Shown one piece after another: positions 6,352-56,611 of a stretch of 64,000 nucleotides of DNA; the stretch's first letter is position 1; every line of letters begins with the position of its first letter. This stretch comes from Candidatus Poribacteria bacterium. GTDB lineage: Bacteria; Poribacteria; WGA-4E; WGA-3G. The stretch covers positions 1,472,001 to 1,536,000 of the forward strand of contig OZ242029.1 of NCBI GenBank assembly GCA_965205015.1, in the 5' to 3' direction. The translations under genes and the position numbers were made by a program. The notes under the pieces are model-generated. The model had not been told where the DNA came from. It worked only from the letters and a program-made list of their open reading frames with translations, and did no database searches.

Positions 6352-6381
6352 TTCTGTTGGTATACACCACCAAGTTTCCCT

Positions 6382-7803
6382 TTAAGTCAATGTTGCAGTA
6401 CGCAGGATAATCCGATCCTCTGTCCAGTTATCGCGATACCACGTACACGCTTCAAAGGTATCGTTAATCGCATTCATGCGCTGCTGTAAGACGATTCGGA
6501 ATTGATCTCGAAGTCTGGTCGATTCGGGTTCGTCCATCAGATTACGGGTTTGGAACGGATCCGCGACATTATCAAAGAGTTTCTCACTTCGATCTGGACG
6601 GTGGATGGCGTAGGTATATCGCTTTGTCCGGAGGGCGCGCCACTCATAACCATCTTCCCACTTGGCAGTACATCCCATTCCTTGCATGAACGCCGCATCC
6701 GGTTCATCAGCGGATTGGTGAAACGGGACGTTGCTGAAATCTCTCCCTTCAACAGTTTCTGGAATCGGCAGATCCATCATAGATAACAAGGTCGGCATGA
6801 TGTCGGGTGTGTTCAGGCATGCATCTGAGACATGCCTCTTCGGAATTTGTCCGTGCAACCGAACAAGGAACGGAACGCGCACTGCCTCTTCATAAAAGAT
6901 GTTCTTTGCGCGGCGACCCTGTGCACCAAACATCTCGCCGTGATCGGAAGTGAACACAAAGATCGTATCGTCTCGCAATCCGAGATCATCAACGGTTTGT
7001 AGCAACCGCCCAATATTCCGATCCAAGTTGGCAGTCATGGCGTAATAGACACGCATCCACTCAGGCAATTCGGCACGTTCTGCGGGGGACATAATTGCCC
7101 ATGTATCGCCGTAAGGGTCATTTTCATCGCGATAATTTGGTGGTAACGGGAAATCAACATCCTGGAACATCTCATAATCGGCAGATGGAACGTTGTCTTG
7201 CGTCCACGGGTCGTGCGGTGTCCCGATTGAAAGAAAAAGCGCGAACGGATCATCACTTGTTGCAGCCCGTTGCAGATAATCAATTGCCATATCGGTTTGA
7301 CCGTCCGGTTCATAACCCGGTAGCACGATCTTTTCAGGCGAATCCCTGTGGTAATATGTGTCAAAGTACAAATGATGAAAATTGTATGCTGACCACTCAC
7401 CCTCAAAACCGAGCCGATGTGGTCCCGGCGGAATGTAAGAGTTCTCGGGGTCGTTGTGTCTCCCCAATTGATTTGCCCACAAATGCCATTTCCCGATGTA
7501 ACTTGTCTGGTAACCGTTGCGATGTAAAACATGCCCGAAACAGTCATGATTCGGGTTCATGCGAAGCTCATTAATCGCCATACCGGTACTACTTGCGTAT
7601 TTGCCGGTGAAGAGTGAGGCACGATACGGAGCACACATCGGGCTACCGGAAACAGCGTTGCAGAAATTTGTACTCTCCGTAGCGAGCTGATCGATATTAG
7701 GTGTACGCGCGCGGGCATCGCCAGCGTAGCCACACGACTGGTAGCGGAGCTGATCGGCGAAAACATAGACCAGATTCGGTCGCTTTCCAACTGAACGAGA
7801 CAT
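6382..7803 (-). CDS. Sulfatase (Cys-type, S1 family)
   Basis: PNLVYVFADQ, CAPYRASLFTG (CxPxR), GKWHL, FTSDHG. Confidence 0.93.
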   Translation of the reverse strand: MSRSVGKRPNLVYVFADQLRYQSCGYAGDARARTPNIDQLATESTNFCNAVSGSPMCAPYRASLFTGKYASSTGMAINELRMNPNHDCFGHVLHRNGYQTSYIGKWHLWANQLGRHNDPENSYIPPGPHRLGFEGEWSAYNFHHLYFDTYYHRDSPEKIVLPGYEPDGQTDMAIDYLQRAATSDDPFALFLSIGTPHDPWTQDNVPSADYEMFQDVDFPLPPNYRDENDPYGDTWAIMSPAERAELPEWMRVYYAMTANLDRNIGRLLQTVDDLGLRDDTIFVFTSDHGEMFGAQGRRAKNIFYEEAVRVPFLVRLHGQIPKRHVSDACLNTPDIMPTLLSMMDLPIPETVEGRDFSNVPFHQSADEPDAAFMQGMGCTAKWEDGYEWRALRTKRYTYAIHRPDRSEKLFDNVADPFQTRNLMDEPESTRLRDQFRIVLQQRMNAINDTFEACTWYRDNWTEDRIILRTATLT

Positions 7804-7912
7804 TTTTTAATTATACCTTGCGGAGAAAGGACGGGGGTTAGAACTTTGACGTACCTTCCTTAAATCTGAGGAAACGCCCAAGCAAAAACCCTTCCATTTC
7901 ATTACAGGCTAT
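7804..7912 (-). repeat. Dispersed repeat (CCGCAAGG-ended family) abutting the sulfatase start
   Basis: Minus strand TAGCCTGTAATGAAATGGAAGG...TTTTTGCTTGGGCGTTTC...CCGCAAGGTATAATTAAAAA followed directly by ATG. Confidence 0.75.
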
Positions 7913-8135
7913 GGGTTTCGAGCTAATTCCAACGAGGTCTGAACCCCGTAGGCGTGAAAATTGTTACGTTTATGATGCCTACAGTATAGCATATTCCAGC
8001 AGATTATTCAAAAAAAAACAAGCACTCGCGAGGCACACAAAAGCCAAAAAAGCGGGAGTTTTTTGCAAGATATGAAAAAGTGGGCGTTGTAGAAATGACG
8101 ACACCGCTGCACGATGGCCTTTTCTTTCCCCGCTT

Positions 8136-9548
8136 TCACTTATCAGATGGCTTTCTCCATTGCCCTCCAGTGACCTGATCTATCAGCATACGCGCTTTTT
8201 GACTCGCTCGAACCTGCTTCTCGATTTCAACAGGATCCCACTTCGCTAACAATTGTGCTTCAAGCTCTTGGCAGATTCCTTGATATGCCGCTTCATCGGC
8301 GAGATTCCGAAATTCGTTCGGATCTTCGGCAATATCGTAAAGTTCTGGTGCATCGCCGAGGCTGTAGTTGAATTTGTACCGTCCTTTCCGCAGCATCGCC
8401 ATGGGGCGTTCAACACCGTGCGCTAGGTATTCAGAAAACGCGAGATCCTTCCAATCACTTGCAGTATCCTGCACTAAAGGCATCAGACTATCCCCATCCA
8501 GTTGACTCAAGAACTGTGCCCCTGCAATATCAACGAGCGTCGCTGTTAGATCTACGAGGGACACGATCTCATCAACGCATTTGCCTGCGGATAAATGGTC
8601 GGGAAACATAATCTGTAAGGGGATGCGAGCGGATGCCTCGTAGAAATTCGATTTGCGCCACATGCCGTGTTCGCCGTTCATCTCACCGTGGTCGCTGGTA
8701 TAGACGACGACCGTATTCTCCAACTGATCGGTCTCCTCAAGTGCCTTGAGCAAGTTGCCAATCTTTTCGTCAAGGTAGGTAATCAACCCATAATAGCCCG
8801 CCCTTCCGCGACGCACCAGTTCTTCGGGGAAGTCAACACACCCGAACATACGCCGCATCCGTTGGTAGACGGGATGTTGGTTTTCGAGGTGTCCCTCTGG
8901 AATGTTGGGTAGATCGATCTCATCAAGTGGATAGAGGTCCCAAAACCGCTGTGGCACGATGAGCGGGAAATGCGGCGCGATAAACGAGACATTGAGTGCC
9001 CACGGCTGTTCGTGGCGTACCGGATCTCGGAGATACGCCAAAGCCTCTGTTTCCGCGAGGTCATCGACTTCAATTTCCTCCATTGTTCCCGGACGTGCCT
9101 GTGCGAGCCCTTGCCAGGGACGCGGTGCCGGTGGTGTGCCGTTATTCCAGTCCGTCAGTCCGTGCTGTCGTTCTGCGTGCAGATCGCGGGCGAGTTGTGC
9201 CCGAAATCCGTGGAGCTGATCCATACCACCGAAGTGCTGTTTCCCAGAGAGCACGACATCGTAGCCTTCTGCCCGCAGGAGATGTGCCCATGTGACAGCA
9301 TCTGGACGCAGGGGCGCGGCGTTGTCCCATGCACCGATTTTGTGGATATATCGACCCGTCATAAATGACATCCGAGATGGCATACAGAGCGGTGAATTGC
9401 AGTAGGCATTGGTGAAGGTGACACCCTCTTCAGCGAGCCTGTCCATGTGCGGCGTTTGGACGAGTGAGTGTCCGTAGGGACCGCTGTACATCGGGGCATG
9501 TTCGTCGGACATGATGATAAGGAGATTGGGTTTCTGTTTTGAGGGCAT
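8136..9548 (-). CDS. Choline-sulfatase-like sulfatase
   Basis: PNLLIIMSDEH, NSPLCMPSRMSFMTG, SGKQHF, YTSDHG; ATG 9548 preferred over 9569. Confidence 0.88.
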   Translation of the reverse strand: MPSKQKPNLLIIMSDEHAPMYSGPYGHSLVQTPHMDRLAEEGVTFTNAYCNSPLCMPSRMSFMTGRYIHKIGAWDNAAPLRPDAVTWAHLLRAEGYDVVLSGKQHFGGMDQLHGFRAQLARDLHAERQHGLTDWNNGTPPAPRPWQGLAQARPGTMEEIEVDDLAETEALAYLRDPVRHEQPWALNVSFIAPHFPLIVPQRFWDLYPLDEIDLPNIPEGHLENQHPVYQRMRRMFGCVDFPEELVRRGRAGYYGLITYLDEKIGNLLKALEETDQLENTVVVYTSDHGEMNGEHGMWRKSNFYEASARIPLQIMFPDHLSAGKCVDEIVSLVDLTATLVDIAGAQFLSQLDGDSLMPLVQDTASDWKDLAFSEYLAHGVERPMAMLRKGRYKFNYSLGDAPELYDIAEDPNEFRNLADEAAYQGICQELEAQLLAKWDPVEIEKQVRASQKARMLIDQVTGGQWRKPSDK

Positions 9549-9644
9549 AGTGTTTCTACATGGACTCAATCAATCCATAGGCAATCAACTTTAAGATTAA
9601 CAAGTAATTGTTCAAGGCTCGTTCCGTCTTGGAGATGGGATAGG

Positions 9645-11315
9645 TTAGATATGTATAGCGTTTGGATTTGACCTTGCTTGCTGCGCCCACATTTCAGCGA
9701 TCCGTTCAAAGGAGGGACGATAAATCTCACTTGAGGGTCGAAATAGACTTTCCTCTATGGGTTGGATTAGAGTCTCTTCTTCCTGCTGCACTAACATCAA
9801 TGAGAGGTCATCAGGTAACTTAACACCGATCTGCTTCTCAAAATCTGGTATGCTTTGATAGTCATCATGAAATAGAGCAACAATGTCTACATCCATGTCT
9901 TTAGCATCTGTTAAATCCGCTTTCGCTTTCTCCCACTCTTGTTCGTGTAACCACACCTTAGCACGACCATAATAAGCCTTTGCATAACGGCGGTTGAGTT
10001 GTATGGTCGTATTAAAATCTGCAAGAGCCATATCAAAGCCCCCTTCATTACCATAAACGTTACCACGATTATAATACGCTATCTCCAATAATGGGTTGAG
10101 TTGTATCGCTATCGTATAGTCTCTAATGGCATGGTCAATTTCACCTTTGTTACTATAAGAGATGCCGCGATTGATATAAGCTAGAATGTAGTCGGGTTGG
10201 AACCTAAGGACTACATTATAGTCTCTGATGGCATTATCAAAATCACCTTTTCCACTATAAGCAATACCACGATTAAAATAGCATTCAATGCTATGATGTG
10301 GGTTGCGTTCTATCACTTTCGTATAGTCCGATATGGCTTTGTTAAATTCGTCCCTGCTGCTATAAGCATTACCGCGTTCATAATACGCATTGAGGTAATT
10401 GGGTTGCAATTTTATCGTTTTTGTATAGTTTGCGATAGCCGATTCAAAATCGTTTTTGTTGCTGAAAGCCATGCCGAGAATCAGATACGCATCCGCAGCA
10501 TTCGGATTACGTTCCAACGCTTTTTCACAGTCTGCAATAGCGGAGTCAAATTCCCCCTTAAGACTATAAGCAGTTGCGCGGGTGATGTACGGATGAGCAG
10601 CGTTTGAATTGAGTTCTATCACCTTTTGGAAGTCCGCTATAGCGGAGTCAAATTCCCTTTTAAGTAAGTGAACATAGCCTCGCATAACATAGACTGTTGG
10701 GTAATTTGGTTTCAGTTCTATTGCCCTGCTATAGTCTGCAATAGCTTTATCATCTTCCTCCTTGCTGCGGTAAGCATTGCCACGAATAGCGTAAACCTCA
10801 GCAAAATCCGGCTTGAGTCGGATCGCCTTGCTATAGTCCATAATGGCGGAGTCCAGCTCATCTTTGTCGTTGTAAGCATTCCCTCGAATAAGATAGGCTT
10901 CAGCAGCATCAGGATTAAGTTGTATTGCCCTGTCACAGTCTTCAATGGCACGGTCGAAATCTTTCTTGCTAACATAAGCATGAGCACGCTGATAATAGGC
11001 CTCAGCGTAGTCCGGTTCGTATTGGATTGCCTTGGTGAAGTCTTCAATCGCCGTGTCAATGTCACCTTTAGCCCCATGTGCCATACCGCGACCATAATAA
11101 GCCCTAGCGGGTTGCCGAGTCCAGAAAATCGCGTCGGTATAATCCTTAATCGCGAGGTCAAATTTACCCATTTTGTGGTAAACATTACCGCGGTAGACGT
11201 AAGATAAAGCAAAATTTGGTCTCAAGTCAATGGCTCTACTATAGTGTTTGACAGCTTCTTCATAATGCGCCATTTTCACTGGGTTAGCCATTCTCTGAAT
11301 CTCCTCTTTGTTCAC
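9645..11315 (-). CDS. TPR-repeat protein (probably the C-terminal part of a frameshifted FRG-TPR gene)
   Basis: Long run of 34-aa TPRs (AYxxRGxAY...AIxDYxxAIxLxP). Confidence 0.85.
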   Translation of the reverse strand: MNKEEIQRMANPVKMAHYEEAVKHYSRAIDLRPNFALSYVYRGNVYHKMGKFDLAIKDYTDAIFWTRQPARAYYGRGMAHGAKGDIDTAIEDFTKAIQYEPDYAEAYYQRAHAYVSKKDFDRAIEDCDRAIQLNPDAAEAYLIRGNAYNDKDELDSAIMDYSKAIRLKPDFAEVYAIRGNAYRSKEEDDKAIADYSRAIELKPNYPTVYVMRGYVHLLKREFDSAIADFQKVIELNSNAAHPYITRATAYSLKGEFDSAIADCEKALERNPNAADAYLILGMAFSNKNDFESAIANYTKTIKLQPNYLNAYYERGNAYSSRDEFNKAISDYTKVIERNPHHSIECYFNRGIAYSGKGDFDNAIRDYNVVLRFQPDYILAYINRGISYSNKGEIDHAIRDYTIAIQLNPLLEIAYYNRGNVYGNEGGFDMALADFNTTIQLNRRYAKAYYGRAKVWLHEQEWEKAKADLTDAKDMDVDIVALFHDDYQSIPDFEKQIGVKLPDDLSLMLVQQEEETLIQPIEESLFRPSSEIYRPSFERIAEMWAQQARSNPNAIHI

Positions 11316-11997
11316 GGGTTAAGCCTATATAATGCGACTTGTATACTTCCAGATGGATGCTCTGATCCTTAATGAAACCATGGATATCATTGTAAATGGT
11401 TTCAACAGATATACCGTGAGAGTTTCGCAAATGCCCCAGTATAGGTTGTTTGAGCACTGCTGGAATATTAATTACATCATCCTCATTTGGACCAATAAAG
11501 CCATCGGGATGTCTAATAAATACGCTTTTCTGAGCGATAACACGATTTATTGGCTCGTAAGGCTTTTCAATGTAGGGACTTATCAGTTCCTTCTTTTCCA
11601 AGATAACCCTGCCATTTTTGCCAGGGGAGCCATCACATGCCATGAATAACGCGACGAGGTAATCCTCCGTGAAATCAATGAGGTTGGTTTTACCGCCGTA
11701 ATGTTGGATTTCGGCAAGGCGTTTTATCTCGCTAGCTGGTTCGCGGGAAAACTCTTTAACCGTTTCCAACATACCCATTTGGACATTTTCTATATCAAAT
11801 CGCGCGGTCTCAACATCAAAACCTTCTAGCTCCAGAAAAACGCGGTAAAGATTTGAAGAAACTTTCCCATAGTAAGGCTTCTCCTGATAATGTTCAGGTT
11901 CTCCCCGGTAGATGTATTCTCCAGTGTCCGCTTTTTCTTCTATTTTTCGGAGTATGTCGTCAACCGTACTTGGCTCGTTTGGTTTTTCTTTGTCCAT
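11284..11997 (-). CDS. FRG-domain protein
   Basis: YIYRGE, IQHYGGKTNLIDFTEDYLVALFMAC, NRVIAQKSVF are FRG motifs; promoter TTGACA-N17-TACTAT on the minus strand at 12059-12031. Confidence 0.85.
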   Translation of the reverse strand: MDKEKPNEPSTVDDILRKIEEKADTGEYIYRGEPEHYQEKPYYGKVSSNLYRVFLELEGFDVETARFDIENVQMGMLETVKEFSREPASEIKRLAEIQHYGGKTNLIDFTEDYLVALFMACDGSPGKNGRVILEKKELISPYIEKPYEPINRVIAQKSVFIRHPDGFIGPNEDDVINIPAVLKQPILGHLRNSHGISVETIYNDIHGFIKDQSIHLEVYKSHYIGLTREQRGDSENG

Positions 11998-12179
11998 CCA
12001 CTTTCCTTTACGATCACAATGCTGCTTAAAATAGTAACACGTTCCACAAAGGATGTCAACTGAATTTAACAGCCTGAACGGTCGCGAACTGTAGCTCGCT
12101 TCTACAGTATTCTGCTTGAATTATTCTTGGTAAGGTGCTATGCTGATTTTATTAATACATATAACATAAAGGAAACAGT

Positions 12180-13691
12180 ATGCCTGAAACCAGACCTAAT
12201 ATCCTACTTATTACCAGCGATCAGCAGCATTGGAATACTTTGGGCTGCCTCAACCCCGAAATACAGACCCCGCACTTAGACACATTGGCGCAACAAGGCA
12301 CGCTTTTCAATAGAGCCTATTGCCCGAACCCTACCTGCACACCGACGCGCGCATCTATTATCACTGGAAAATACCCGAGCCAACACGGTGCGTGGTCGCT
12401 CGGCACGAAACTCTCTGAAGATGAACATACCGTCGGTGAGGATTTCACGGATGCTGGCTATCGGACTGCCCTCGTCGGAAAAGCACATTTTCAACCGCTC
12501 CACGGGACAGAGGAATTCCCGTCTCTCGAATCCTACCCGATTCTCCAAGATTTGGACTTTTGGCGCAGTTTCAACGAGCCGTTTTACGGGTTTGAGCATG
12601 TCGAACTCGCACGCAACCACGCCGACGAAGCACACGTCGGACAACACTATGCGATCTGGATGGAAGAGAACGGCTGTACCAATTGGCGCGACTATTTCGC
12701 ACCGCCGACAGGGAACGCTCGCGGGCAATACCGCAAGTGGCACATCCCAGAAGAATACCATTACGATACCTGGATTGCGGAACGTACCAATGCGCTCATG
12801 GAAACGTATCAACAGAACGGTGAGAACTTTTTCCTCTGGGCGAGTTTCTTCGATCCGCATCCGAAATATCTTGTTCCAGAGCCGTGGGATACGATGTACG
12901 ACCCAGAGGCGTTGACGGTGCCCTCCGTAACCGAGGGAGAACACGATAACAACCCACCGCATTTCCAGCTAACACAACAAGAAAAGCCGGATTTCTCCGC
13001 TTGGCGTGAAAGTGGGAAGGGGGTACACGGCTTCAACTCACATCTACGCGATCGGGACGAACTCGCTAAAGACATTGCTGTCTATTACGGCATGGTGAGC
13101 CTGATGGATAAGTATATCGGGAAAATCTTGGCGAAACTGGACGAATTAGGGCTTGCAGAGAACACGTTGGTCGTGTTCACTTCCGATCATGGGCATTTTT
13201 ACGGACAACACGGACTCGTCGCAAAGGGAGCATTCCACTACGAGGATGTCATCCGAGTGCCGTTTATCGCGCGGTATCCAGGGGTCGTGCCTGCGGGGAA
13301 ACACTCCGAGGCATTGCAGACGTTGGTAGACTTAGCACCCTCATTTCTCAGCGCTGCTGGCATTGACATTCCTCTTCCAATGACAGGCGTAGATCAGATG
13401 CCGGTCTGGTCAGGACAAGCAGAACAGGCACGCGACCATATCCTCGTTGAAAATCATCATGAACCGACAACGGTGCACGTCAAAACCTATGTTGACGATC
13501 GTTATAAGATTACCGTCTACTATAACAGAGATTATGGCGAGTTATTTGATTTGCAAGCGGATCCTGGAGAAGTCAACAACCTATGGAATTCCGCTGAGCA
13601 TGCGGCACTGAAGGCGGATCTGGTGATGAAACTGTTGTTCGCGGAGATGGGGAAAGAACCGTTATGGATGCCGCGAACTTCGGGGGCATAA
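12180..13691 (+). CDS. Sulfatase (Cys-type)
   Basis: PNILLITSDQ, CTPTRASIITG, GKAHF, FTSDHG; promoter-like TTGAAT-N17-TATGCT at 12116-12144. Confidence 0.93.
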   Translation: MPETRPNILLITSDQQHWNTLGCLNPEIQTPHLDTLAQQGTLFNRAYCPNPTCTPTRASIITGKYPSQHGAWSLGTKLSEDEHTVGEDFTDAGYRTALVGKAHFQPLHGTEEFPSLESYPILQDLDFWRSFNEPFYGFEHVELARNHADEAHVGQHYAIWMEENGCTNWRDYFAPPTGNARGQYRKWHIPEEYHYDTWIAERTNALMETYQQNGENFFLWASFFDPHPKYLVPEPWDTMYDPEALTVPSVTEGEHDNNPPHFQLTQQEKPDFSAWRESGKGVHGFNSHLRDRDELAKDIAVYYGMVSLMDKYIGKILAKLDELGLAENTLVVFTSDHGHFYGQHGLVAKGAFHYEDVIRVPFIARYPGVVPAGKHSEALQTLVDLAPSFLSAAGIDIPLPMTGVDQMPVWSGQAEQARDHILVENHHEPTTVHVKTYVDDRYKITVYYNRDYGELFDLQADPGEVNNLWNSAEHAALKADLVMKLLFAEMGKEPLWMPRTSGA

Positions 13692-17851: not shown

Positions 17852-18000
17852 AGTTGTCAGTTATCGGTTTAGACTCTCCCACACTTACTGACATAAAACT
17901 TTTGAAGCGCGTGGGCGAGTCTGGGTTATTGGAGGAATAGTTATCGGTCTTCGGAAAAGCGGAGGATTTCGTTAAACGAAAACCTCTTAACCGAAAACGA
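17852..18000. repeat. Heptamer-flanked palindromic repeat family copy
   Basis: AGTTGTCAGTTATCGG...TTCGTTAAACGAAAACCTCTTAACCGA; related copies at 23961-24020, 25888-25940, 26681-26823, 32705-32755 and 41027-41103. Confidence 0.7.
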
Positions 18001-18001
18001 A

Positions 18002-21000
18002 TTATTGCGACAAAGACTCGTAGTAATCATCAACAAGTCTACGGTACTCAGGTGGAACATCTTCCCTTGCGACTTGAGCGAGCCGTTTTTTCTCTTGGAG
18101 CGTGTTAAGCCGCTCTTCGAGCGCGGATTCCAGCTGATCAAGATCCCTAATAACGAGGTCATAGTTAGGGAATGGATTTGAGCGATTTCCGGGTCGATAG
18201 TCCATTGTATCAAGCATACCGAGCCAGAGTCTTTCAATCTCCCTGTTTGACTCCCTGCCCCCTGTACGGGAAACCTCCTGATCTGCGGGTTCATCGGAAC
18301 CAGGTTGGTTCCCACTTTGTCGTTGCATCGCCTCCTGTGCGCGTTGCATCTGCTCTTGAATTTGTTGTTGTTGCTCTGCGAGCTGCTCCCGCCGACGCTG
18401 TTGTTCTTCCGTCTGCTCCTGACCTTCCATCGCTTGAAGTTCGCGTTGGATGTCCTGCATCCGTTCTCGCGCCTGTTGGAGTTGTTCAAGTGCAGCTTCA
18501 AGTTGTTCTTCTTCGGTATTCGCCATATTGGCTCGCGCCTGCTGCAGATCCCCTTGTGTCTGTTCCAATGTATCTAAGACCTCTTGCTGATTCTGGTCAG
18601 CGGCTCGGAAACTCCGCCATTGCAAGGCGCGTTGCGCAGTCGCCATATCTCCCGTAGTCTGTTCTTCAGCGAGTCGTCTTGTCGCATCCGCTACATTTTG
18701 GGAGGCTTCTGGATTGTCTGGAGCGAGTTGTTCTTGAATGTTTCTCAGTGTGCGCTCAAGTGTCTCCAGATTGCGCTGAAGTTCGCGCTGCTGATTGGCG
18801 AGCTCAGACGCTTTTCGGAAATCTTCAGGACGCATCTCTGATTGCTGAGAACGCCCCCTGAGTTCCTGTGTCTGTTGCTGAACATCAGACTGTGTTTCTG
18901 TCAACTCCTGAAGTTGTTGAGAGGCTCTATCAAGCGCGGCATCTGTGTATTCTGCGGCGACCTTCTCTAACTGCTCAATGGCTTCCTGAAGTCTTTCTTC
19001 CGCCTTTTGCCCTTTGGCAGCACTCAACTGCGGTTCCTCCTGTTGCATGCCTTGTGCGGCTTCGTCCATCTGCTCACCCGCTTGTTGCATCGCTTGTCCG
19101 GCTTGGTTTAGGCGTTGCCCTTGGGTACTTTGCCCATTTTGTTGCATGGTGTCGAGCTGCTGCGCCATCCGTTGTGCTTGTTGCGCCAACTGTCCCTGTT
19201 GTTGACTGTTCTGCTGCATCTCACTCGGCGAGGGTTGATCTTCACGTCCTAACTGTTGGCTTTGTTGGCTCAACTGCTGCTGTTCCCCTAACATCTGACG
19301 CGCCTGATCTAACATCTCCTGCGTCTGCTCTTGCATCTCCGTGTCGAGTTCGTTCTGCTGATTCTCAAGCTCACTTTGCAGTTCCTCCATTTCAAGCTCA
19401 AGGTTCTCAGCGAGTTGAGGATTACTGTTCCGCATCTGCATCAGTACTTTGGGGATCTCAAGACTCACTTTTATCAGGAGTTCAAGGGCTTCCTGTTCCG
19501 GTGGAATCGCTTCATCGGGACGGACAGCGTTCAAACTATCGCTCGCTTCACCCATTTTGTCTATTGCGTCCTCCAAGTTCATCAGAATCTCAGGCGTGAC
19601 AGCGGATTCCCCTTGCATCGCAGCACTAAATTCATCTACAACTCGCTGCGTCTTATCCTTTAACTCGGTTTGTCTTTCGCCCGTTTTCCTGACTGCAGCC
19701 TGATATGTTTCGGTAATCGCTGCAGGTTTCGTGAGAACGTGCCTCGATGTCTCTCGGATAATCTCCTTCTGTGAGCTAATTACATCCAAAAGCGGATTCG
19801 GCTCAGCCTCCCCCGGCTGGCCTTCGCTTTCGCCTTCATGGAAATCCTCATTAAAGGGACGAATTTCAATGAAATAAATCTCGCTACTGGCTTCGCCGGG
19901 ACCGGTGCGCGTGTTATTATCGGTCGCGTGCGCGTAGTAGGAGATAATATCGCCCGGTTCAACGTCAAATTCCTCCAGATAGAAGGTATAGGTCCCCTCT
20001 GCATACTCGCTTTCAGGTAAGAGGTTTTCGTTACTGACGGAAACCGATTCTTTCGAGGATTCCATCACGAGTTCCTGTAATTCATCGGATCCAACGCGAT
20101 ACATGAGTTTTAATTCTGCAACGCCGTAGTCATCTGTTGCTTCAGCAATGATTTCCACCTCATCTAACTTCGTAGCTTTCACATCTCGACCCGGTTCCTT
20201 GATAACGACCTCTGGAACGGCATCCGGAATGGCTTTAATCATGTATTCGATCGGTATCTCGTTGTTGAACCCATCAATACATAGCAGTTGAATAGCATAA
20301 CTCCCATCCTCGACAACATCTATAGGGGTCGTCAGCGTGTTTCCATTAGAAATAATCATTTGGCTATCGGCGGAATAGAGGTCAGCAGTCAGGTCGGGTT
20401 GCTGATCACTGACCGCTTTTCGGCTGATGGCTATTGACGCAGTTTGAATCGCTTTGTTGGTGATAAGCTTTATCTCTGCTTGCGTACCGACGACAGCCCG
20501 AATATCCCCTGTCCCCGTTTGCACAACAGGTTTAAGACCCGTATAGTCAGGATACGTATAAGCGACCGAAATTTCAGTCACCTTCGGCATTTCAAAAACC
20601 TCAACAGTGTAGCGTTCTGAAATCGTCTCGTTCGCAACGACATAGTATTCCATATCGGCATCAATGTTGAAAATTTCATAGGCAAACCCGCGTTTATCGT
20701 CCGGATTTTGCAGCATGCCAATCATAGTTTTGGACTGTTGTTCGTCTGTGTTAACCTCGGATGTGGAGGGTTGCTGCGCGCCAATATCCCCATACGTCAA
20801 GACGACCTTTCCAGCAGATTTACCGGTGACAGTGACATGAATCGGCAGGCTCTTGCCGCGGAGGATACGTGCATTTCCCGGTTCAACAGTGAGTCTGGTT
20901 GTCAAAACCGGATCCGTTTTCTCCCAAGGGACCAATACACGGAGCAGGCTGGTATGGATTTCTGTCGGAAATAACAATGAAAGGATAACACAACCGACAA

Positions 21001-21481
21001 TAACCAAAGTCGCAATGCCGACATGCTTACGGGTTTGACTGTGATCGATCGTTGCTTTGAAATTGATACCTTTTACACGCGCAACGGTATCCTCAAGCAA
21101 ACGTTGAAGCATGTGTGCCTCAATCGGATCCGCCGATTCTCGGTTTCCGAATTCGATGGCACTCACCAGCCTATCTTCCAGGTCGGGATGATTGCGTTCA
21201 ACGTTAAGGGCGACATCCCGGAGCGTAAGCGATGCCCGGAGCGGTTGAATGAGATACTTATACAACAGGTAACCGATAACACCTGCCCCGATAACTAACA
21301 AAGCGATGCGTACAGCACTCGGGAGCGGCATCAGCCAATCAACGATAGCTTCACCCACAAACAGAGCGATAACACCCGTCAGGACAATAGCAAATCCTGT
21401 CCAGAAGAGGCTGCGTTTCCAGACGCGCCGTGCGTCTAAAACTCTCGTTTGTAATTCCGTATAATTTTCTTTTGTATTCAC
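18002..21481 (-). CDS. Large DUF4175-like membrane-anchored protein with Ig-like region and Q/E-rich coiled coil
   Basis: N-terminal TMs, PDLEDRLVSA, YPDYTG, ATDDYGV, C-terminal VPPEYRRLVDDYYESL. Confidence 0.8.
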   Translation of the reverse strand: MNTKENYTELQTRVLDARRVWKRSLFWTGFAIVLTGVIALFVGEAIVDWLMPLPSAVRIALLVIGAGVIGYLLYKYLIQPLRASLTLRDVALNVERNHPDLEDRLVSAIEFGNRESADPIEAHMLQRLLEDTVARVKGINFKATIDHSQTRKHVGIATLVIVGCVILSLLFPTEIHTSLLRVLVPWEKTDPVLTTRLTVEPGNARILRGKSLPIHVTVTGKSAGKVVLTYGDIGAQQPSTSEVNTDEQQSKTMIGMLQNPDDKRGFAYEIFNIDADMEYYVVANETISERYTVEVFEMPKVTEISVAYTYPDYTGLKPVVQTGTGDIRAVVGTQAEIKLITNKAIQTASIAISRKAVSDQQPDLTADLYSADSQMIISNGNTLTTPIDVVEDGSYAIQLLCIDGFNNEIPIEYMIKAIPDAVPEVVIKEPGRDVKATKLDEVEIIAEATDDYGVAELKLMYRVGSDELQELVMESSKESVSVSNENLLPESEYAEGTYTFYLEEFDVEPGDIISYYAHATDNNTRTGPGEASSEIYFIEIRPFNEDFHEGESEGQPGEAEPNPLLDVISSQKEIIRETSRHVLTKPAAITETYQAAVRKTGERQTELKDKTQRVVDEFSAAMQGESAVTPEILMNLEDAIDKMGEASDSLNAVRPDEAIPPEQEALELLIKVSLEIPKVLMQMRNSNPQLAENLELEMEELQSELENQQNELDTEMQEQTQEMLDQARQMLGEQQQLSQQSQQLGREDQPSPSEMQQNSQQQGQLAQQAQRMAQQLDTMQQNGQSTQGQRLNQAGQAMQQAGEQMDEAAQGMQQEEPQLSAAKGQKAEERLQEAIEQLEKVAAEYTDAALDRASQQLQELTETQSDVQQQTQELRGRSQQSEMRPEDFRKASELANQQRELQRNLETLERTLRNIQEQLAPDNPEASQNVADATRRLAEEQTTGDMATAQRALQWRSFRAADQNQQEVLDTLEQTQGDLQQARANMANTEEEQLEAALEQLQQARERMQDIQRELQAMEGQEQTEEQQRRREQLAEQQQQIQEQMQRAQEAMQRQSGNQPGSDEPADQEVSRTGGRESNREIERLWLGMLDTMDYRPGNRSNPFPNYDLVIRDLDQLESALEERLNTLQEKKRLAQVAREDVPPEYRRLVDDYYESLSQ

Positions 21482-22403: not shown

Positions 22404-23582
22404 TCAATCAGAAGTTTGTTCATACAGTTTACTTTTTTCTACCTCTAACTGTGCCTTCTGCCAACTGTAATCGACACCGCCGTCATAGAATTTATCCGGA
22501 TGCTCCACTGCCCAAATTTGTTTATGAATAATCCAGTTCTGCGGGTCTAATGCCAAAGCCTTCCGCCATTCCGCCATCGCCTCTTCTTTTTTACCGACCT
22601 CCAACAAGACCAGACCCAGTTGGAAACGTGCAGTAGCTTCAGTAGTCGTTTGCGCATTTAGCGTATCTAAGGGTTTCGCATCATGGAGCAATTTCGCATT
22701 ATAATCGGGGTCTGACAACCATTTTTCAAGCATTGCGAGGGTTTCTTGATCTGCGACATTGATGTTGAACGGTCCTTTTACCAATCGCCCTGCTTCATCA
22801 ACCATAACACCATACGGAATCGCTTTGAGGTCATAGCGGTTTCCGAACGTATTTTGTGAATCAACGAGCGTGACAAAATCGGCGTTTGCCGCCTGATGCC
22901 AAGGGCGTACGACGGATGCGCCTTGTGCATCAAGCGCAATAGAGACAAGGTTTAACGTCTCGCGGTGTTTGGCATAAAACCTCTGCCAGCCTGGCAGTTG
23001 TTCACGACACCCTCACCACGATCCCCAAACATAGAGGAGTGTCTTTTTTCCTCTGAAATCGCGTAAGCGTTTTGGCGTCCCTTCAAGGTCGGGGAGCGTA
23101 AATTCGGGAGCGAAGTGCATGGGTTGAACAACCTCTAACCGATTTGCTGATACTTCGTAGACTTCAAAGCCGAAGGGTTCCGCGACAAGCACCGGTTGGA
23201 CATAAGTTACGCCATCAATATCAACAACACCCTTCTTACTATCTTCGAATTCGAGGGGCACACAGAGTTCCGATGCTACACCGCCGCAGAGAACCACCAT
23301 CTTTGCACCTTCCGGGTACTCAACCTTTAACCCGAGCCGTTTGGCGAAAGGTTCCAAAGGCACGAACCAATTACCATCTTCAAGAATAGGAGGTGCGGCA
23401 AATCTGAAAGGTTGGGCATCTATCGAAATATGAAAATCCTTTTTGTTCATATTCCCCTCTTCGGTCACCCCCATCCATACACCTACTGTACAGGTCAACG
23501 CCGCTACCAACATTGCGAACCATGTTACAATAGGGCGCAACTTGGAAGGGCGCAACTTGGAAGCCAGCATTGCAATAATCAT
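22404..23582 (-). CDS. TlpA/ResA-like redoxin selenoprotein (WGSW-U-GC motif) with C-terminal TPR
   Basis: The ORF-track pieces 23013-23582 and 22404-22805 are in one frame, separated only by TGA at 23013-23015. Read-through gives APEFTLPDLEG...LYVWGSW-U-GCREQLPGWQRFY...VSIALD...AIPYGVMVDEAGR, a complete thioredoxin fold. The start could be ATG 23450. Confidence 0.88.
22983..22997 (-). promoter_or_regulatory. Putative bacterial SECIS hairpin
   Basis: CTGCCA-GGC-TGGCAG perfect stem starting 15 nt after the in-frame UGA, with G in the apical loop. Confidence 0.75.
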
Positions 23583-26825: not shown

Positions 26826-27650
26826 TTAGTACTTGATTTTCACATCTGCCCAAGTGGTTGCCACCTTGTCAGCAGGATCAATCGCTAAGGCTGAATGCAT
26901 ACCGTTCAACAACTCTTCAATATCCGCTTGCGCCAAAGCGACATCGAAGATTACAACCTCATCAATAGTCGCTGCACCGTAGCGTGCGCCACCACAGCAA
27001 TCATCAAATCCGATATTGACGGGACCGCTATCGGCATCAATGGGATTCTTAGCCAAATCTAATGTACTGGCTTCTTCCGCATCAATATAGATAGCCCACT
27101 TACCGGTTTTACTATCAAAAGTGGTTGTGTACATGTGCCACTTGGTAATATCTTTGGTGCCAACATTACCGTCATTCCAACCGCCGGGTTTATTCCAGCA
27201 GCCTCCGTTGCAAATGGGCCAAGCAATATTTTTTGTTCCTTGATTGGGATGGATGATATAGGCGTTCCGCTTTTCAACCATCCAGCCGTGTTGGTTCCAA
27301 GTATCCCCTGCACTCTTCGCCCAAGCTGAGACCGTGATTGCCTGAGTTGGATTATCATGCTCGACGATCTGAACGTAAGCACCTTTACCATCAAATTCAA
27401 GTGCTTGCCCAAACTGTCCCTTAACCCATTTCGGCTTACCTTTGAAGTCCCCATCCAGTCCATTTCCTGAGTCATCGGTTGCCATATTTCCTTTGCCCGC
27501 ATCAAAAAGCCACATCCCGACAATCGTATCAGGGTCGATCTCGGCAGAGGTGGTGGAGACGCACAATACACCAACCCCAAAAAGACTGAAACACACGAGG
27601 ACTAAGCTTACAAGCAAAAATTTGCTGCCAGAAATAATACTGAAATTCAT
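26826..27650 (-). CDS. Secreted LamG domain protein with conserved C-terminal motif
   Basis: Signal peptide, GMWLFD...GQFGQALEFDG, WHMYTTTFD, IDEVVIFD; ends LAIDPADKVATTWADVK. Confidence 0.88.
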   Translation of the reverse strand: MNFSIISGSKFLLVSLVLVCFSLFGVGVLCVSTTSAEIDPDTIVGMWLFDAGKGNMATDDSGNGLDGDFKGKPKWVKGQFGQALEFDGKGAYVQIVEHDNPTQAITVSAWAKSAGDTWNQHGWMVEKRNAYIIHPNQGTKNIAWPICNGGCWNKPGGWNDGNVGTKDITKWHMYTTTFDSKTGKWAIYIDAEEASTLDLAKNPIDADSGPVNIGFDDCCGGARYGAATIDEVVIFDVALAQADIEELLNGMHSALAIDPADKVATTWADVKIKY

Positions 27651-35149: not shown

Positions 35150-36634
35150 TTACTTCACCTCACTCATCAGAAACGAGACTTGTGCCATAATAAAGAAGAG
35201 TAGATTAAAGAGCACTAACAAGCTGACTTGGGATAACACACTCCGATAGGAAATCTGCTCCGAAAATACCGGCACAGCATCTGGATCCACAGGTTTCTGG
35301 GACAATCCCTCCTTCACAGGATAGATATGGAGACTCTCTGGATCACTCTGATCTTCCGCCTTGATGAAGTCTATGAACGTTTGACGATAGCGGCGCGCCT
35401 GTTTGACGAAATTCATATAACCCACGATACCCGTATTCGCAAGCCCTTCCATCGCATACTGGAAAGTCGCTATCGGAGAAATCTGGGTGAGATCGCGGGC
35501 AAGCTGCACCTGCCTAAACTGCTGATCAATGTGTTCATCAAGACTTTTTGTTTCTATCCCTTTCTGCGCTGTAAAGTATGTTGCCCACTGTCGCGTCGCT
35601 GATGGATTTTCAGTGGAGGGTGCTTGGTTCAACTTACTCGATGTTTCACCAGACACGCCCCAAGGCCCGTAGGCGCCCCAAGGCTGAAATTGATCCATAA
35701 TTTGCTTCAATTGCGCTTCTCTTCGTAATGAGACCTCGTCAACCGACGGAATTGGATTCAGGTTACCAACAAAGATCCCGAGTAGGTTCGGAAAGACAAA
35801 GGCGAGGAAAACCCAAGTGAGTAAGAGCCATACCAAACTTGTAATAGCGTTTGAGACGCGACTTGAAAAAAACAAACCGACGAAAATAAAAGCAGAAATG
35901 AGTAGCCCAAACAGTCCGACCATCCCCAGAATTCTGAGAGAGGTTCCCGAATCAAAGGAAAGACTCCCAGAAAGTTGGATAACTAATAGATTCATCAGGA
36001 TACCAATTACGAGTGGCACCATGAGCGTCAGAAATGCGCCGATGGACTTTCCCAACAACACTTGGCTGCGCGAGACCGTGTTGGACATCATCATACTGAG
36101 GGTGCCGCTGGATCGTTCCCCAGCGACGGCATCGAAAGTGAACAAGATGGCGAAAAAACTCATCAGTACACCGATGAAAACCCAGTCTATTTTGATACGA
36201 CGGGTTCCCCCCCCTTCATCAAAACTATTCAACGGATACCTTAACGTCCAAGGGCCCTTCCATGCATAAGCTTCAAATTTACCAGGCTTAGCACTGCGAC
36301 TGGCAGTGCCGTACTCCTGCATGATGACATAACGCGGTATCACTTCATCAGCCCCATTGGCGGAGAATTTCAGAGGACTCGGACGTTTCGGCATATCCCC
36401 GGGGCCTATCACCGCCAACTCCCCTAAACCCTGGGCGGCATACGTTTCAACATGAGATAACTTTTTTTCTACTTGCTTATTGTAGGCATTGACCTGTGTT
36501 ATGTATCCATCATCACCATAACCGTATATCAACGCGTTCGCTATCATCAGAAGGGGTAGCAGAATTATCATCAAAGCGAACCGGAGCGTCGTGAGATTGT
36601 GATGAATCTCTTTCTTCGCAATGTGCAAAATCAT
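35150..36634 (-). CDS. ABC-2-type transporter permease with large extracytoplasmic loops (B copy 2)
   Basis: HIAKKE, FDAVAGERSSGTL..MMSN.VSR..LLGK; paralogue of 39568-41019. Confidence 0.85.
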   Translation of the reverse strand: MILHIAKKEIHHNLTTLRFALMIILLPLLMIANALIYGYGDDGYITQVNAYNKQVEKKLSHVETYAAQGLGELAVIGPGDMPKRPSPLKFSANGADEVIPRYVIMQEYGTASRSAKPGKFEAYAWKGPWTLRYPLNSFDEGGGTRRIKIDWVFIGVLMSFFAILFTFDAVAGERSSGTLSMMMSNTVSRSQVLLGKSIGAFLTLMVPLVIGILMNLLVIQLSGSLSFDSGTSLRILGMVGLFGLLISAFIFVGLFFSSRVSNAITSLVWLLLTWVFLAFVFPNLLGIFVGNLNPIPSVDEVSLRREAQLKQIMDQFQPWGAYGPWGVSGETSSKLNQAPSTENPSATRQWATYFTAQKGIETKSLDEHIDQQFRQVQLARDLTQISPIATFQYAMEGLANTGIVGYMNFVKQARRYRQTFIDFIKAEDQSDPESLHIYPVKEGLSQKPVDPDAVPVFSEQISYRSVLSQVSLLVLFNLLFFIMAQVSFLMSEVK

Positions 36635-36646
36635 CTGTTCTCCTTT

Positions 36647-38185
36647 TTAACTCATCTCATATCTCAGAAAAGACACATAAGCCAACATAAACAGAACAAT
36701 ATTCCATGCCAACAAGATTAGAATATCCACAGAAGCGCGTGAGAAACTTTCGGAGAGGGAGAACCGCTGATGTCGATAAACCGGCAGATCCGCTAAATCC
36801 GCAGCACCTTGGTCATCGGAAAACCAGGCGCGCGAAGAAAATGCTTTTTTATCTTTCAAATATTCAACAATCTCGCGCTTATGGGTCCTGGAACTCTCAA
36901 GAAAGTCATTATAACTCTGCCGGTCGGTCCCCGCTATTGCCCCAACAGCAAAGCGGTACACATCTGCGAAGGAGATACGGGAGAGAAAATCTGCGAACTT
37001 CGCGTTCCGCTCTCGGTCGTCCGCAGGTTTTCTGAGAATTTCTTCCGCCCTATCCGTATACCCAATTCGAAGTGGTTCCTGATAACTTAAAAATTCTTGG
37101 AGAACAGACACATCGGCATCCTTAAGGTTTCTGATCTGATAACTCTCTGTCAGAAACCACTGTGCAGACATAGAGAAAGTGCCAGCAGACCCACGTTTTC
37201 TACCTTTTTCATCGCGGTGCCAAGAGACCGTCTCCGTTGGACTATCGTACCCCCTCTTTTTCAGGTGATCGCCGCGTTCTTTTCTGAAATCGTTCCAGAG
37301 TTGAATCGTCTGTTGAAAAATTTTCTCCTCCGAGTCCGGTTTATGTGGCGAAAATTTCGTCACCGCAAATGTCGCCACGTTCGCATGAACACTTGTCAGG
37401 ATCACCCAGAGAAACATCGAAAGAATTAATGTTGTCGTTGCTTCCTTCGTCCAAACAGATAAGAGCAGTCCTAAAAGATACCACGCTGACACGTACAACA
37501 GCGAAACAGCGAATATCAGAACAACGTGGGCAATGTCGCTTCCATCAAAGGCAATGTCAGGTGAAGAGAGTGCAAGCAACAGTGCCATAATCAAACTCAC
37601 CACAACAATCGGGAACAGCGACAACATACCGCCAAGGTATTTCCCCAAAACCACCGTGTCCCTCGGTATCGAATTAGATAATACGAGTTTCAGTGTGCCG
37701 TCCTCTCTTTCGCCTGAAATTGTGTTGTAAGCAAACAGAATCGCTAAAGCACTGAGTACGATTTTGAAGATGAAAACCACATCAACGGAGAGAAACATTG
37801 CGAGAAAAGGGTTGTCTGCCCCTATCTTCCGAGTCGTTTCGCCCCAACCGGGGGAACTGCTATCCCGTTTCCAAATCGGCTTGTCAGGCTCAACAACGAC
37901 CGTATTTACACCAGAAGTTTCCATCCCGATGTTAAAAATGCCGAGCGGATTCGGTTTTCTGTGCACCTTTGAACTAATATCAGTGTAGAGTTTCCAATTC
38001 TTTGCTTCTGCTTGGGATTCCCGGATAGCCGTATTATATCCCACTAAACGCTTTTCGTGATCATCCACTTGGACAAAAACAGCGACAGCCGTTGAAAGCA
38101 GACACACGATAAACCCAATCATGAAGCGGGATGTTAGCATATTTGAGACGAATTCGCGTTGGATAACAAGCCAAAGCGTATGCAT
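36647..38185 (-). CDS. ABC-2-type transporter permease (A copy 2)
   Basis: YNTISGEREDGTLKLVLSNSIPR..VVLGK, ends FLRYEMS; paralogue of 41108-42634. Confidence 0.85.
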   Translation of the reverse strand: MHTLWLVIQREFVSNMLTSRFMIGFIVCLLSTAVAVFVQVDDHEKRLVGYNTAIRESQAEAKNWKLYTDISSKVHRKPNPLGIFNIGMETSGVNTVVVEPDKPIWKRDSSSPGWGETTRKIGADNPFLAMFLSVDVVFIFKIVLSALAILFAYNTISGEREDGTLKLVLSNSIPRDTVVLGKYLGGMLSLFPIVVVSLIMALLLALSSPDIAFDGSDIAHVVLIFAVSLLYVSAWYLLGLLLSVWTKEATTTLILSMFLWVILTSVHANVATFAVTKFSPHKPDSEEKIFQQTIQLWNDFRKERGDHLKKRGYDSPTETVSWHRDEKGRKRGSAGTFSMSAQWFLTESYQIRNLKDADVSVLQEFLSYQEPLRIGYTDRAEEILRKPADDRERNAKFADFLSRISFADVYRFAVGAIAGTDRQSYNDFLESSRTHKREIVEYLKDKKAFSSRAWFSDDQGAADLADLPVYRHQRFSLSESFSRASVDILILLAWNIVLFMLAYVSFLRYEMS

Positions 38186-38291
38186 TTAATACACCTCATT
38201 AGCAGAATGACATCTGCAGCGGTTTCCTAAAGACAGCACATCATGAAATATTGCTATTTTGATGCTTGATCGGCGATAGCTGGAAAGTTAT

Positions 38292-39176
38292 CTACCCGCC
38301 TTTAGAATCAGTAGATTTGACTTCATACCTCTTTAATTGAAGGGTTTTACCCGTGGTTGAAGCCTTCACTTGAGAGTGAGTTATAACTGTCAGAAGGATA
38401 TCCTCCGCTTCTTGGTGAAACTTGACAATTCCGACGTTGGGTGCTACCCACAGCGTCGTAACGGATTCACCGGGTGGATTCGCTTCCCCAGCCCGGTCGC
38501 GTGCGCCCCCATTCGCGCCATGAACGAATATTGCGACTTCTGTTGACGTCCGATACTCAATTTTCAAACAGTCTTCAAAAGTGCCAGCGGGTGTCTCAAC
38601 GTTTTCCGTCCCTAAAACCTTGCCTGTTTCAACAATAGTAAACTCACATATCGTTTCCTCAGGATCTTGCGGCGGATCAGGTGTCATCGTGACTTTGGCT
38701 TTTATCTGTGCTACGTCCCACTTTTCGTCGAAGGTAACAGACGTTGGAAGCACATAAAATGGGTCTTGTGCCTCTACCTCAATGTCGTAGAGGAGATCGA
38801 AATTCGCCTCATGTATTTTGCCGAAGACCTCTACCTCTTTGGCAAGACGCGCCTTGACCGCTTTCTCTACATCATCACCGACCCAGAACGTAACTTGCTC
38901 TTCACCAACTCGATAGAGATGTGGGTGGATATGATAGTCATAATCCGCCCAATCCTCTAAAGCAGGTTCATAACTGAAGGCGTGATACGTCTCTCCGTCG
39001 ATATCTTTGTTCTCAATGACACGACGTGTTAATTCGTTTCCGTCTTGGTCTTCATAAACCCAGTAACTTCCGAGCGTGTGTGGAAAATAGGTATCAGCCC
39101 CTTCTTTCCCCACCAGTGTTGCACTAAAACCCAAAATGAGCGACAAACTAAAAATGACACGAAATCTTTTCAACAT
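38292..39176 (-). CDS. Secreted hypothetical protein with DUF3108-like beta domain
   Basis: Signal peptide; YFPHTLGSYWVY ... ENVETPAGTFEDCLKIEY ... LWVAPNVGIVK. Confidence 0.65.
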   Translation of the reverse strand: MLKRFRVIFSLSLILGFSATLVGKEGADTYFPHTLGSYWVYEDQDGNELTRRVIENKDIDGETYHAFSYEPALEDWADYDYHIHPHLYRVGEEQVTFWVGDDVEKAVKARLAKEVEVFGKIHEANFDLLYDIEVEAQDPFYVLPTSVTFDEKWDVAQIKAKVTMTPDPPQDPEETICEFTIVETGKVLGTENVETPAGTFEDCLKIEYRTSTEVAIFVHGANGGARDRAGEANPPGESVTTLWVAPNVGIVKFHQEAEDILLTVITHSQVKASTTGKTLQLKRYEVKSTDSKGG

Positions 39177-39239
39177 GATAGATTCCTCGAATTTTTCGTT
39201 TTTTAACCTAATGCTCTGTCAGGATTATTTTGAGAGGTT

Positions 39240-39270
39240 GTAGGTTGGGTTGAACGCAGTGAAACCCAAC
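39240..39270 (+). repeat. GTAG-type REP palindrome
   Basis: GTAG-GTTGGGTT-GAACGCAGTGA-AACCCAAC. Confidence 0.7.
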
Positions 39271-39567
39271 GTATTCTGCCAATCTAATCTATCAGCGTAG
39301 AGGTGACAGAACACGAACCTATAGGTAGAAGCGATTTTCAAGCGTGCTTCCTGAAATGAATTGCTTCAATTCCCACCGCGCATTTTGAGGTTGTCGTTAC
39401 TACAAACGAGTTTGAAAAAAGTTGCATTTTATTTTAATTTTAAATTTTCAGAATACTTACAATCCCATGAAATTTCACTAACGAAAGTCTCTACATGTTT
39501 TCGGACTTTATGGTAACCTCTATCCAACCGCAACGAGATATACACAAATCTACTGAATCCCGCCGCG

Positions 39568-41019: not shown

Positions 41020-41026
41020 TAGTCCT

Positions 41027-41103
41027 CAGCAATCAGCAGTCAGCAGTCAGCAAGATAGTAGCCAGCCATTTTTCCGACAACTGACGACTGACAACCGACA
41101 ACC
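41027..41103. repeat. Heptamer tandem repeats in opposing orientation
   Basis: CAGCAAT CAGCAGT CAGCAGT CAGC ... CCGACAA CTGACGA CTGACAA CCGACAA. Confidence 0.7.
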
Positions 41104-41107
41104 ATTT

Positions 41108-43602: not shown

Positions 43603-43634
43603 TGATACTTCCTCCCAGAGATTTCAAAATCCAA

Positions 43635-56552: not shown

Positions 56553-56611
56553 GATGACCCTCCAAGTCATTTGATAGCAAGTTTCGGAGACCTGTAAGCT
56601 TCGCCGAAATG

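Follow-up and report, generated by a model that had tools for sequence, protein, structure and literature searches.

Two open reading frames of a Candidatus Poribacteria bacterium probably form one gene for a UGC-containing TlpA/ResA-like selenoprotein

Redoxins with a contracted U-G-C active site, in which U is selenocysteine (Sec), have been described before. Table 2 of the GOS study (PMC2398784, 2008) has an entry 'Prx-like (UGC-containing)' (pfam00578, motif UGC), for which it counts 46 selenoprotein sequences and 855 cysteine (Cys) homologues, and the study describes the family as commoner in non-marine samples (PMC2398784). A table of a 2026 review (PMC13188914) includes the UGC-containing Prx-like family under cd02966, and NCBIfam holds a family NF041054, 'WAxxUGC_long'. 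Here we considered a window of 64,000 nucleotides (nt) from a Candidatus Poribacteria bacterium (assembly GCA_965205015.1, contig OZ242029.1, positions 1,472,001 to 1,536,000), for which an initial annotation, made from the sequence alone, had proposed a hidden selenoprotein and had relied on the existence of ResA-like proteins with such a motif, correctly in view of these three sources. In our reading, to which we give a probability of about 0.88, the minus-strand region 23582..22404 is one gene, which encodes a selenoprotein of 392 residues from the UGC-containing TlpA/ResA-like ('Prx-like') redoxin family.

The frame is opened by an ATG (23582..23580) and closed by a terminal TGA (22406..22404). 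Its sole internal stop is the TGA at 23015..23013, codon 190, in the peptide context LLYVWGSW-U-GCREQLPGWQ; nothing else interrupts it down to 22404, as had been claimed at the outset. A standard listing of open reading frames (ORFs) breaks the gene into two pieces, a 189-amino-acid (aa) ORF (23582..23013) and a 133-aa ORF that begins only at the ATG at 22805. The databases do the same, with a 'hypothetical protein' and a 'tetratricopeptide repeat protein', so that the suspected splitting by ORF calling was found in public records as well. We scanned the six frames of the window for frames broken by TGA only and with at least two long pieces: three were returned, and only the selenoprotein frame was clean (203 + 202 codons). 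The other two, 17897-18574 (plus strand) and 6084-7859 (minus strand), were dismissed because they overlap genes in another frame or strand. TGA terminates 11 of the 45 ORFs of the window, the selenoprotein gene among them, and since it is an ordinary stop for these ORFs there is no reassignment of the code.

The decisive evidence, in our view, is that the stop and the two halves are conserved, which was assessed with two queries. With the 189-aa N-terminal piece, 313 proteins were obtained at E <= 0.01, of which 120 were listed (145-192 aa, 58-100% identity), and all 120 terminate in [LF]LY[VI]WGSW, as read from the protein ends, where TGA, TAA and TAG are not distinguished. With the 202 residues past the UGA, 318 proteins were obtained, and the 120 listed pieces were 133-193 aa long, with 65-92% identity. 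The five named proteins among the listed N-terminal relatives are all 'hypothetical protein [Candidatus Poribacteria bacterium]'; nine of the listed C-terminal pieces are named, as 'tetratricopeptide repeat protein' or 'hypothetical protein', and six of these are labelled Candidatus Poribacteria. The window protein thus sits in a clade in which every member with an organism name is a Candidatus Poribacteria. N- and C-terminal pieces recur on contigs of matching size in four pairs (53327, 47558, 120859 and 5636236), and it is these four size-matched pairs that we took as the measure of the adjacency of the fragments. The mean column identity was 0.75 for residues 46-189 vs 0.79 for residues 225-380.

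A close relative with Cys at the site was not found by the full-length search (216-688 aa), which gave nothing above 52% identity. The best full-length match, the protein P0002 (52% identity), crosses the site in the +1 frame (..GDRGEG..), regains the frame and shifts again near the C-terminus, which suggests that its contig carries several insertions or deletions around the gene. The string TGGTGAGGG and the downstream peptide GCRGQLPGWQQFYAKHRE are conserved in P0002. The frame changes of this protein near the site do show that damaged or badly assembled copies exist, and in that respect they speak for a nonsense mutation, a pseudogene or a sequencing error private to the window genome, the first of which had been named initially as the alternative that homologues should decide. 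The stop, however, was found at the same residue in 120/120 listed relatives, down to 58% identity, and the two halves are conserved to a similar degree. On this comparison the stop is conserved and is no private nonsense mutation, and the probability left to such an accident is negligible.

A second explanation takes the two called pieces at face value, as two separate genes in a stable split: the 189-residue protein would end at the UGA and a 'TPR protein' (TPR, tetratricopeptide repeat) would be made from an internal start, perhaps with non-covalent reassembly of the two. Public annotations call exactly these N- and C-terminal proteins, and both pieces are conserved. The break would fall, however, inside the thioredoxin fold and precisely at the catalytic residue. 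Moreover, ATG, GTG and TTG are absent from codons 191-259, the next in-frame start lying 69 codons past the UGA, and this start-free stretch encodes in frame the residues C192, P197, A216 and D218, invariant in the alignment A1, all of which a C-terminal protein would have to skip; this argues against a C-terminal gene with its own initiation. The called starts of the C-terminal pieces of the relatives vary (133-193 aa), so there is no conserved internal start either. We regard two separate genes as very improbable.

We then return to the single selenoprotein and to the residue at the site in more distant homologues. Distant full-length relatives (24-38% identity) have mostly W-A-S-W-C-G-C, followed in most of them by L-P-x-W-Q, and W-[AGS]-[ST]-[WY]-C-x-C is present in 13 of the 16 relatives aligned in A1; planctomycetes, Frankia and Myxococcus are among the genome records fetched for the family. 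For a scan of genome contigs we used the pattern W[AG]SW[CW][GR]C[RS]x[DQ], taken from a 7-sequence alignment, which allows only C or W at the site and cannot match a TGA. From 219 relatives 80 loci were kept, and 80/80 match this pattern. A stricter motif matched 46 of the 80 loci, all with Cys codons (39 TGC and 7 TGT) and three of them with the G-for-A variant of the motif; neither TGA nor TGG was found at the site by a six-frame regular-expression search over the 80 loci, which the pattern had preselected for C or W. The placement of the TGA (23013-23015) at the site of the first Cys, proposed in the initial annotation, is upheld by the Cys of the distant homologues in A1 and by the Cys codons of all 46 strict-motif loci. 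By alignment, the UGA at 190 is paired with Cys in homologues and both of its flanks are conserved, as is expected of a bacterial selenoprotein.

We also surveyed the top 150 of 27,886 representative matches. In these 150, 32 proteins span the site with Cys, five with Ser, five with Asp and one each with Asn, Leu, Trp and Glu, the single Glu being that of the frame-shifted P0002. Another 63 are short, with their first residues aligned 1-40 positions past the site, and four of these begin with M-C-R; three are N-terminal pieces that end at residue 189 and seven are C-terminal pieces that start later. The rest are 13 matches to the TPR region only, 14 entries without a BLASTP match and four in other categories. 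From these sequences, split genes of the Sec type look widespread in the family beyond Poribacteria, with other causes possible for some of the short pieces.

The architecture of the read-through protein was modelled with confidence (Table 1). AlphaFold2, run with a 104-row alignment, gave a model with a mean pLDDT (predicted local distance difference test) of 91.3 and a pTM (predicted template modelling score) of 0.82, in which the helix of residues 16-38 is followed by a beta-rich domain, a thioredoxin fold and four C-terminal helices, and in which Sec190 lies directly ahead of the first helix of the thioredoxin fold (residues 191-205). The basic residues K9, R11, K14 and R16 stand ahead of the N-terminal hydrophobic helix, and ResA and TlpA have an N-terminal membrane anchor as well. 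The Pfam match to Cu_amine_oxidN1 covers residues 54-99 (29.5 bits, cutoff 24.2). The Cys pair of this domain, C99 (23288..23286) and C107 (23264..23262), is retained in 119/119 Poribacteria fragments, is seen as C...C-V/I-P also across the wider family (alignment A1), and is placed by the model on neighbouring strands; it may serve as a relay site or form a structural disulfide. For residues 157-269 Pfam gives AhpC-TSA (E 3.4e-15) and Redoxin (E 1.6e-12), and in the C-terminal region a stretch ...P-x-N-W...Q-x-W... is kept in homologues. The copper-amine-oxidase-like domain with a Cys pair, the redoxin and the TPR of the initial annotation were all confirmed by Pfam; their combination is not special to this protein, being the norm of the 'long' family. 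In fact, a planctomycete-type Cys relative (P0292) spans positions 10-353 of the 354 of the NF041054 profile, and from this end-to-end alignment the three-domain architecture is the family norm.

Against the Protein Data Bank (PDB), a sequence search with the read-through protein returned Etrx2, ResA, StoA, DsbE and TlpA (best E 6.9e-15), and Foldseek gave target-normalised TM-scores, among the matches listed, of 0.72-0.84 for ResA-type chains and 0.60-0.62 for TlpA chains. In the PDB alignment W-G-S-W-[U]-G-C-R is paired with W-A-S-W-C-G-P-C-K of Etrx2, which makes residue 190 the attacking Cys position of the CxxC and Cys192 the resolving Cys, in a motif one residue shorter.

Table 1. Features of the selenoprotein gene and of the gene upstream, in positions of the window.
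Feature	Position	Strand	Basis
Complete selenoprotein gene	22404..23582	minus	392 codons plus terminal TGA, one in-frame UGA (Sec190)
122-aa membrane-anchored protein, CSRCH haem-c motif, N-terminal hydrophobic helix	23579..23947	minus	ORF list
N-terminal hydrophobic helix (residues 16-38), putative signal anchor or signal peptide	23469..23537	minus	model helix; topology from positive-inside rule
N-terminal beta-rich domain (residues 51-152), Cu_amine_oxidN1-like	23127..23432	minus	Pfam PF07833, E 7.6e-7
TlpA/ResA-type thioredoxin-fold domain (residues 157-269)	22776..23114	minus	Pfam AhpC-TSA/Redoxin, PDB sequence matches, Foldseek
UGA codon 190, Sec, attacking residue of the U-G-C site	23013..23015	minus	alignment with solved ResA/Etrx CxxC; homologue Cys; conserved stop
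TGT, Cys192, resolving Cys of U-G-C	23007..23009	minus	column invariant in alignments A1, A2 and A3
Candidate selenocysteine insertion sequence (SECIS), 60-nt extended hairpin	22961..23020	minus	RNAfold
C-terminal helical region with TPR (residues 279-391)	22410..22748	minus	Pfam TPR_2 at 317-349; model helices

Downstream from the UGA there is a candidate SECIS. A spacer of 15 nt (23012..22998) parts the UGA from CTGCCA (22997..22992), which is followed by the loop GGC (22991..22989) and by TGGCAG (22988..22983), exactly as initially described. The apical loop lies 21 nt past the UGA; it is small and contains a G, which is stated to be the common trait of bacterial SECIS elements (PMC1088965). 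The extended hairpin begins five bases 5' of the UGA, so that its basal stem pairs the U and the G of this codon, and RNAfold gave it a minimum free energy of -27.6 kcal/mol (z = -3.27), with 1 of 200 dinucleotide shuffles as stable. The 6-bp apical stem is at the same time the coding sequence of L-P and W-Q. As a control, we recoded the same peptide synonymously with the codon usage of the window, at three lengths after the UGA. The exact CTG CCA ... TGG CAG occurs in 0/80 Cys loci, although a few of them have wobble-equivalent versions. A comparison of hairpin energies (mean of the Cys loci -22.1 vs -19.8 kcal/mol here) was set aside because it is confounded by the high G+C of the genomes of the Cys loci.

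Several results weigh against one selenoprotein, beginning with the ends of the N-terminal relatives, which are the same for all three stop codons. In the synonymous control, recoded sequences folded with equal stability in 233/2000 cases for the UGA plus 20 codons, in 94/2000 for plus 17 and in 472/2000 for plus 12, and the full six-pair LP/WQ stem arose in 838/5000 recodings. No Rfam family matched the hairpin region, the sole match being a chance snoRNA (E 4.7). Most of the hairpin follows from the conserved L-P-G-W-Q peptide, and it does not clearly exceed what this peptide dictates: it fits a SECIS and is no independent proof of one, and alone it is weak evidence, because synonymous recodings can fold as well, so that on this point the initial annotation had assumed too much. 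The NF041054 score is 152.9 bits, below the equivalog cutoff of 300. The window contains 0 tRNA genes, and SelA, SelB and SelD, for which the initial annotation expected genes elsewhere in the genome, were not found among the 44 ORFs scanned in it. Ser, Asp, Asn or Leu stands at the site in other relatives, so that parts of the family tolerate a residue without redox activity there. The active-site pairs of the surveyed representatives comprise C-x-C (32/150), S-x-S or S-x-C (5), D-x-C or D-x-S (5), C-x-S, and a single Asn and Leu, which means that redox-inactive relatives exist. Finally, Trp is at the site (W-A-S-W-W-x-C) in P0003, P0004 and P0359, the first two of which come from short contigs (1780 and 1210 bp); this Trp may be a real TGG, or a TGA translated by the gene caller under a Trp-reading code.

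The three proteins with Trp are also what favours a third explanation, in which the UGA is read as a standard amino acid (Trp, Cys or Gly), either through near-cognate decoding or under a locally altered code, and selenium is not involved; it can appeal as well to a window without direct evidence of the Sec machinery. On the other hand, the TGA endings counted above leave no room for a reassignment, the site pairs with a redox Cys in homologues, which is the classic signature of Sec, and NF041054 is curated as a selenoprotein family. Genes for the machinery are, furthermore, tabulated for the phylum: in supplementary file 2 of PMC5649159 the reference genome Ca_Poribacteria_WGA3G has COG1921 twice, COG3276 once and COG0709 once (the COGs of SelA, SelB and SelD; columns counted by hand). 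We hold a standard amino acid at this UGA to be improbable, if somewhat less so than the two separate genes. Poribacteria are also among the nine phyla reported to have Sec-containing group 4 [NiFeSe] hydrogenases (PMC13582414), and this hydrogenase paper was the only one in the literature found that combines Poribacteria with a named selenoprotein.

For the working of the selenoprotein we infer the following scheme. SelB with Sec-tRNA(Sec) would decode UGA190 under the direction of the hairpin at this codon, whereas translation would end at the terminal UGA of the gene, which has no such hairpin context. The N-terminal hydrophobic helix would hold the product in the membrane, with the three domains outside the cytoplasm. 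Sec190 would attack a disulfide or an oxidised thiol of the substrate, and Cys192 would then resolve the intermediate, with a selenenylsulfide bridging the contracted U-G-C turn.

Immediately upstream lies the gene of the 122-aa CSRCH protein, whose TGA and the start codon of the selenoprotein gene overlap in ATGA, the two being translationally coupled. Its matches to cytochrome c families are below threshold (PF13442, 19 bits; SorB, 19.3 bits). It is a possible partner of the selenoprotein, with uncertain membership. Beside the Cys loci no conserved partner was found, CxxCH occurring in 1 of about 160 ORFs flanking the 80 loci, with an imperfect picking of the target ORF for some of them. The L-P-x-W-Q motif occurs family-wide, 6-10 residues past the catalytic Cys or Sec. 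It is conceivable, although we think it unlikely, that this motif pre-builds a SECIS-like palindrome, which would ease the switch from Cys to Sec and explain the many split clusters, and that the coupled CSRCH protein is a dedicated substrate or redox partner.

Two genes downstream of the selenoprotein gene, on the same strand, 18002-21481 (minus) encodes a protein of 1159 aa, which has a membrane region at its N-terminus, matches DUF4175 and is rich in Gln and Glu over its long C-terminal half. Elsewhere in the window, a 994-aa ORF at 53586-56570 (minus) is unusual in that sigma-70 regions 2 and 4 of the extracytoplasmic function (ECF) type (residues ~13-188) are fused to an M61-like peptidase body, and two M61-like paralogues follow this fusion in tandem (51166-53586 and 48810-51281, minus). 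A TnpB / Cas12f-like ORF at 57206-58432 (plus; OrfB_IS605 and Cas12f1-like TNB domain) indicates an element of the IS200/IS605 type. Four paralogous genes for ABC-2 family permeases of ~480-510 aa each run in one direction at 35150-42634 (minus), with a DUF3108-like gene between them. The ranges 6382-13691, 26826-27650 and 42793-44438 contain PhyH dioxygenases, three Laminin_G_3 proteins and three genes for sulfatases; this content is typical of Poribacteria and is in keeping with how the closest relatives are named.

We consider the selenoprotein gene genuine. Both its family and the contracted U-G-C motif were known before, and it is no new class of system. The finding is of value mainly for annotation, because the gene is systematically recorded as two in Poribacteria (the N- and C-terminal pieces forming 313 and 318 clusters), a clade that the NF041054 model misses because the score is about half of the cutoff. 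If the two pieces are one selenoprotein, a fixed Sec-dependent extracytoplasmic redox enzyme is added to the biology of Poribacteria, and a selenium requirement of the sponge-associated Poribacteria is implied. The U-G-C, C-G-C and S-x-S variants are, in addition, a natural set for the study of contracted redox motifs.

Among known families, the best NCBIfam match is NF041054, 'ResA-like WAxxUGC motif-containing protein' (E 1.3e-44). The window protein shares with it the W-x-x-x-[U/C]-G-C site, the N-terminal C...C domain, the redoxin and the C-terminal helical region, and the profile covers residues 103-286 and a second stretch. The active-site motif in a ResA-like fold and the long architecture of the family are both present. 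The window protein differs in having W-G-S-W-U-G-C, with G in place of A, and in the spacing of its N-terminal Cys pair (C-x7-C, vs C-x4-C in most aligned relatives). Planctomycete-type Cys relatives do exceed the cutoff of the family (P0007, 317.5; P0008, 320.6; P0013, 308.6; P0292, 321.3 bits). On profile scores, the window protein is best placed as a divergent relative or a sister subfamily of NF041054, and not as an equivalog member. The term 'WAxxUGC' was not found in the literature searched. With the 'Prx-like (UGC-containing)' family, compared by description only, it has in common PF00578 (cd02966 in the review), the UGC motif and a single Sec; Poribacteria are named neither in PMC2398784 nor in PMC13188914 (0 occurrences in the latter), and UGC, TlpA and Poribacteria are absent from the main text of Peng 2016 (PMC5029168).

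The peroxidatic Cys of peroxiredoxins (AhpC/TSA) sits in a P-x3-T/S-x2-C motif. The window protein has L-L-Y-V-W-G-S-W before U190, with neither Pro at -7 nor Thr/Ser at -3, and we rejected a peroxiredoxin; the PxxxTxxU form of that motif is quoted in PMC13188914. It belongs to the same subtype of the thioredoxin fold as ResA (B. subtilis), Etrx2 (S. pneumoniae), StoA, CcmG/DsbE and TlpA (B. japonicum), and differs from the ResA-type reductases in W-U-G-C instead of W-C-G-P-C, in its Sec and in the extra N-terminal and TPR domains. Its scores for these reductases are below the cutoffs (NF002854 ResA, 60.5 vs 170; TlpA, 36.2 vs 230; TIGR00385 dsbE, 23.3 vs 123), and no ccdA/dsbD or resBC/ccm neighbours were found among the 44 ORFs of the window. 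A ResA/CcmG-type reductase of cytochrome c maturation was ruled out by the contracted U-G-C, by these scores and by the missing linkage to ccdA/resBC. The window protein would work like the ResA-type reductases and stands outside their families. For its chemistry the nearest comparison is with C-x-C proteins, for which the potentials given in PMC3173608 are -167 mV (CGC tripeptide), -200 mV (thioredoxin CGC mutant) and -130 mV (YphP). These share with the window protein a contracted motif of two redox residues, with isomerase-like potentials, and use Cys where it has Sec, so that they serve as a working chemical analogy only. Since typical reductases have less oxidising potentials than these, the analogy suggests an isomerase- or oxidoreductase-like selenoenzyme rather than a strongly reducing one of the ResA kind.

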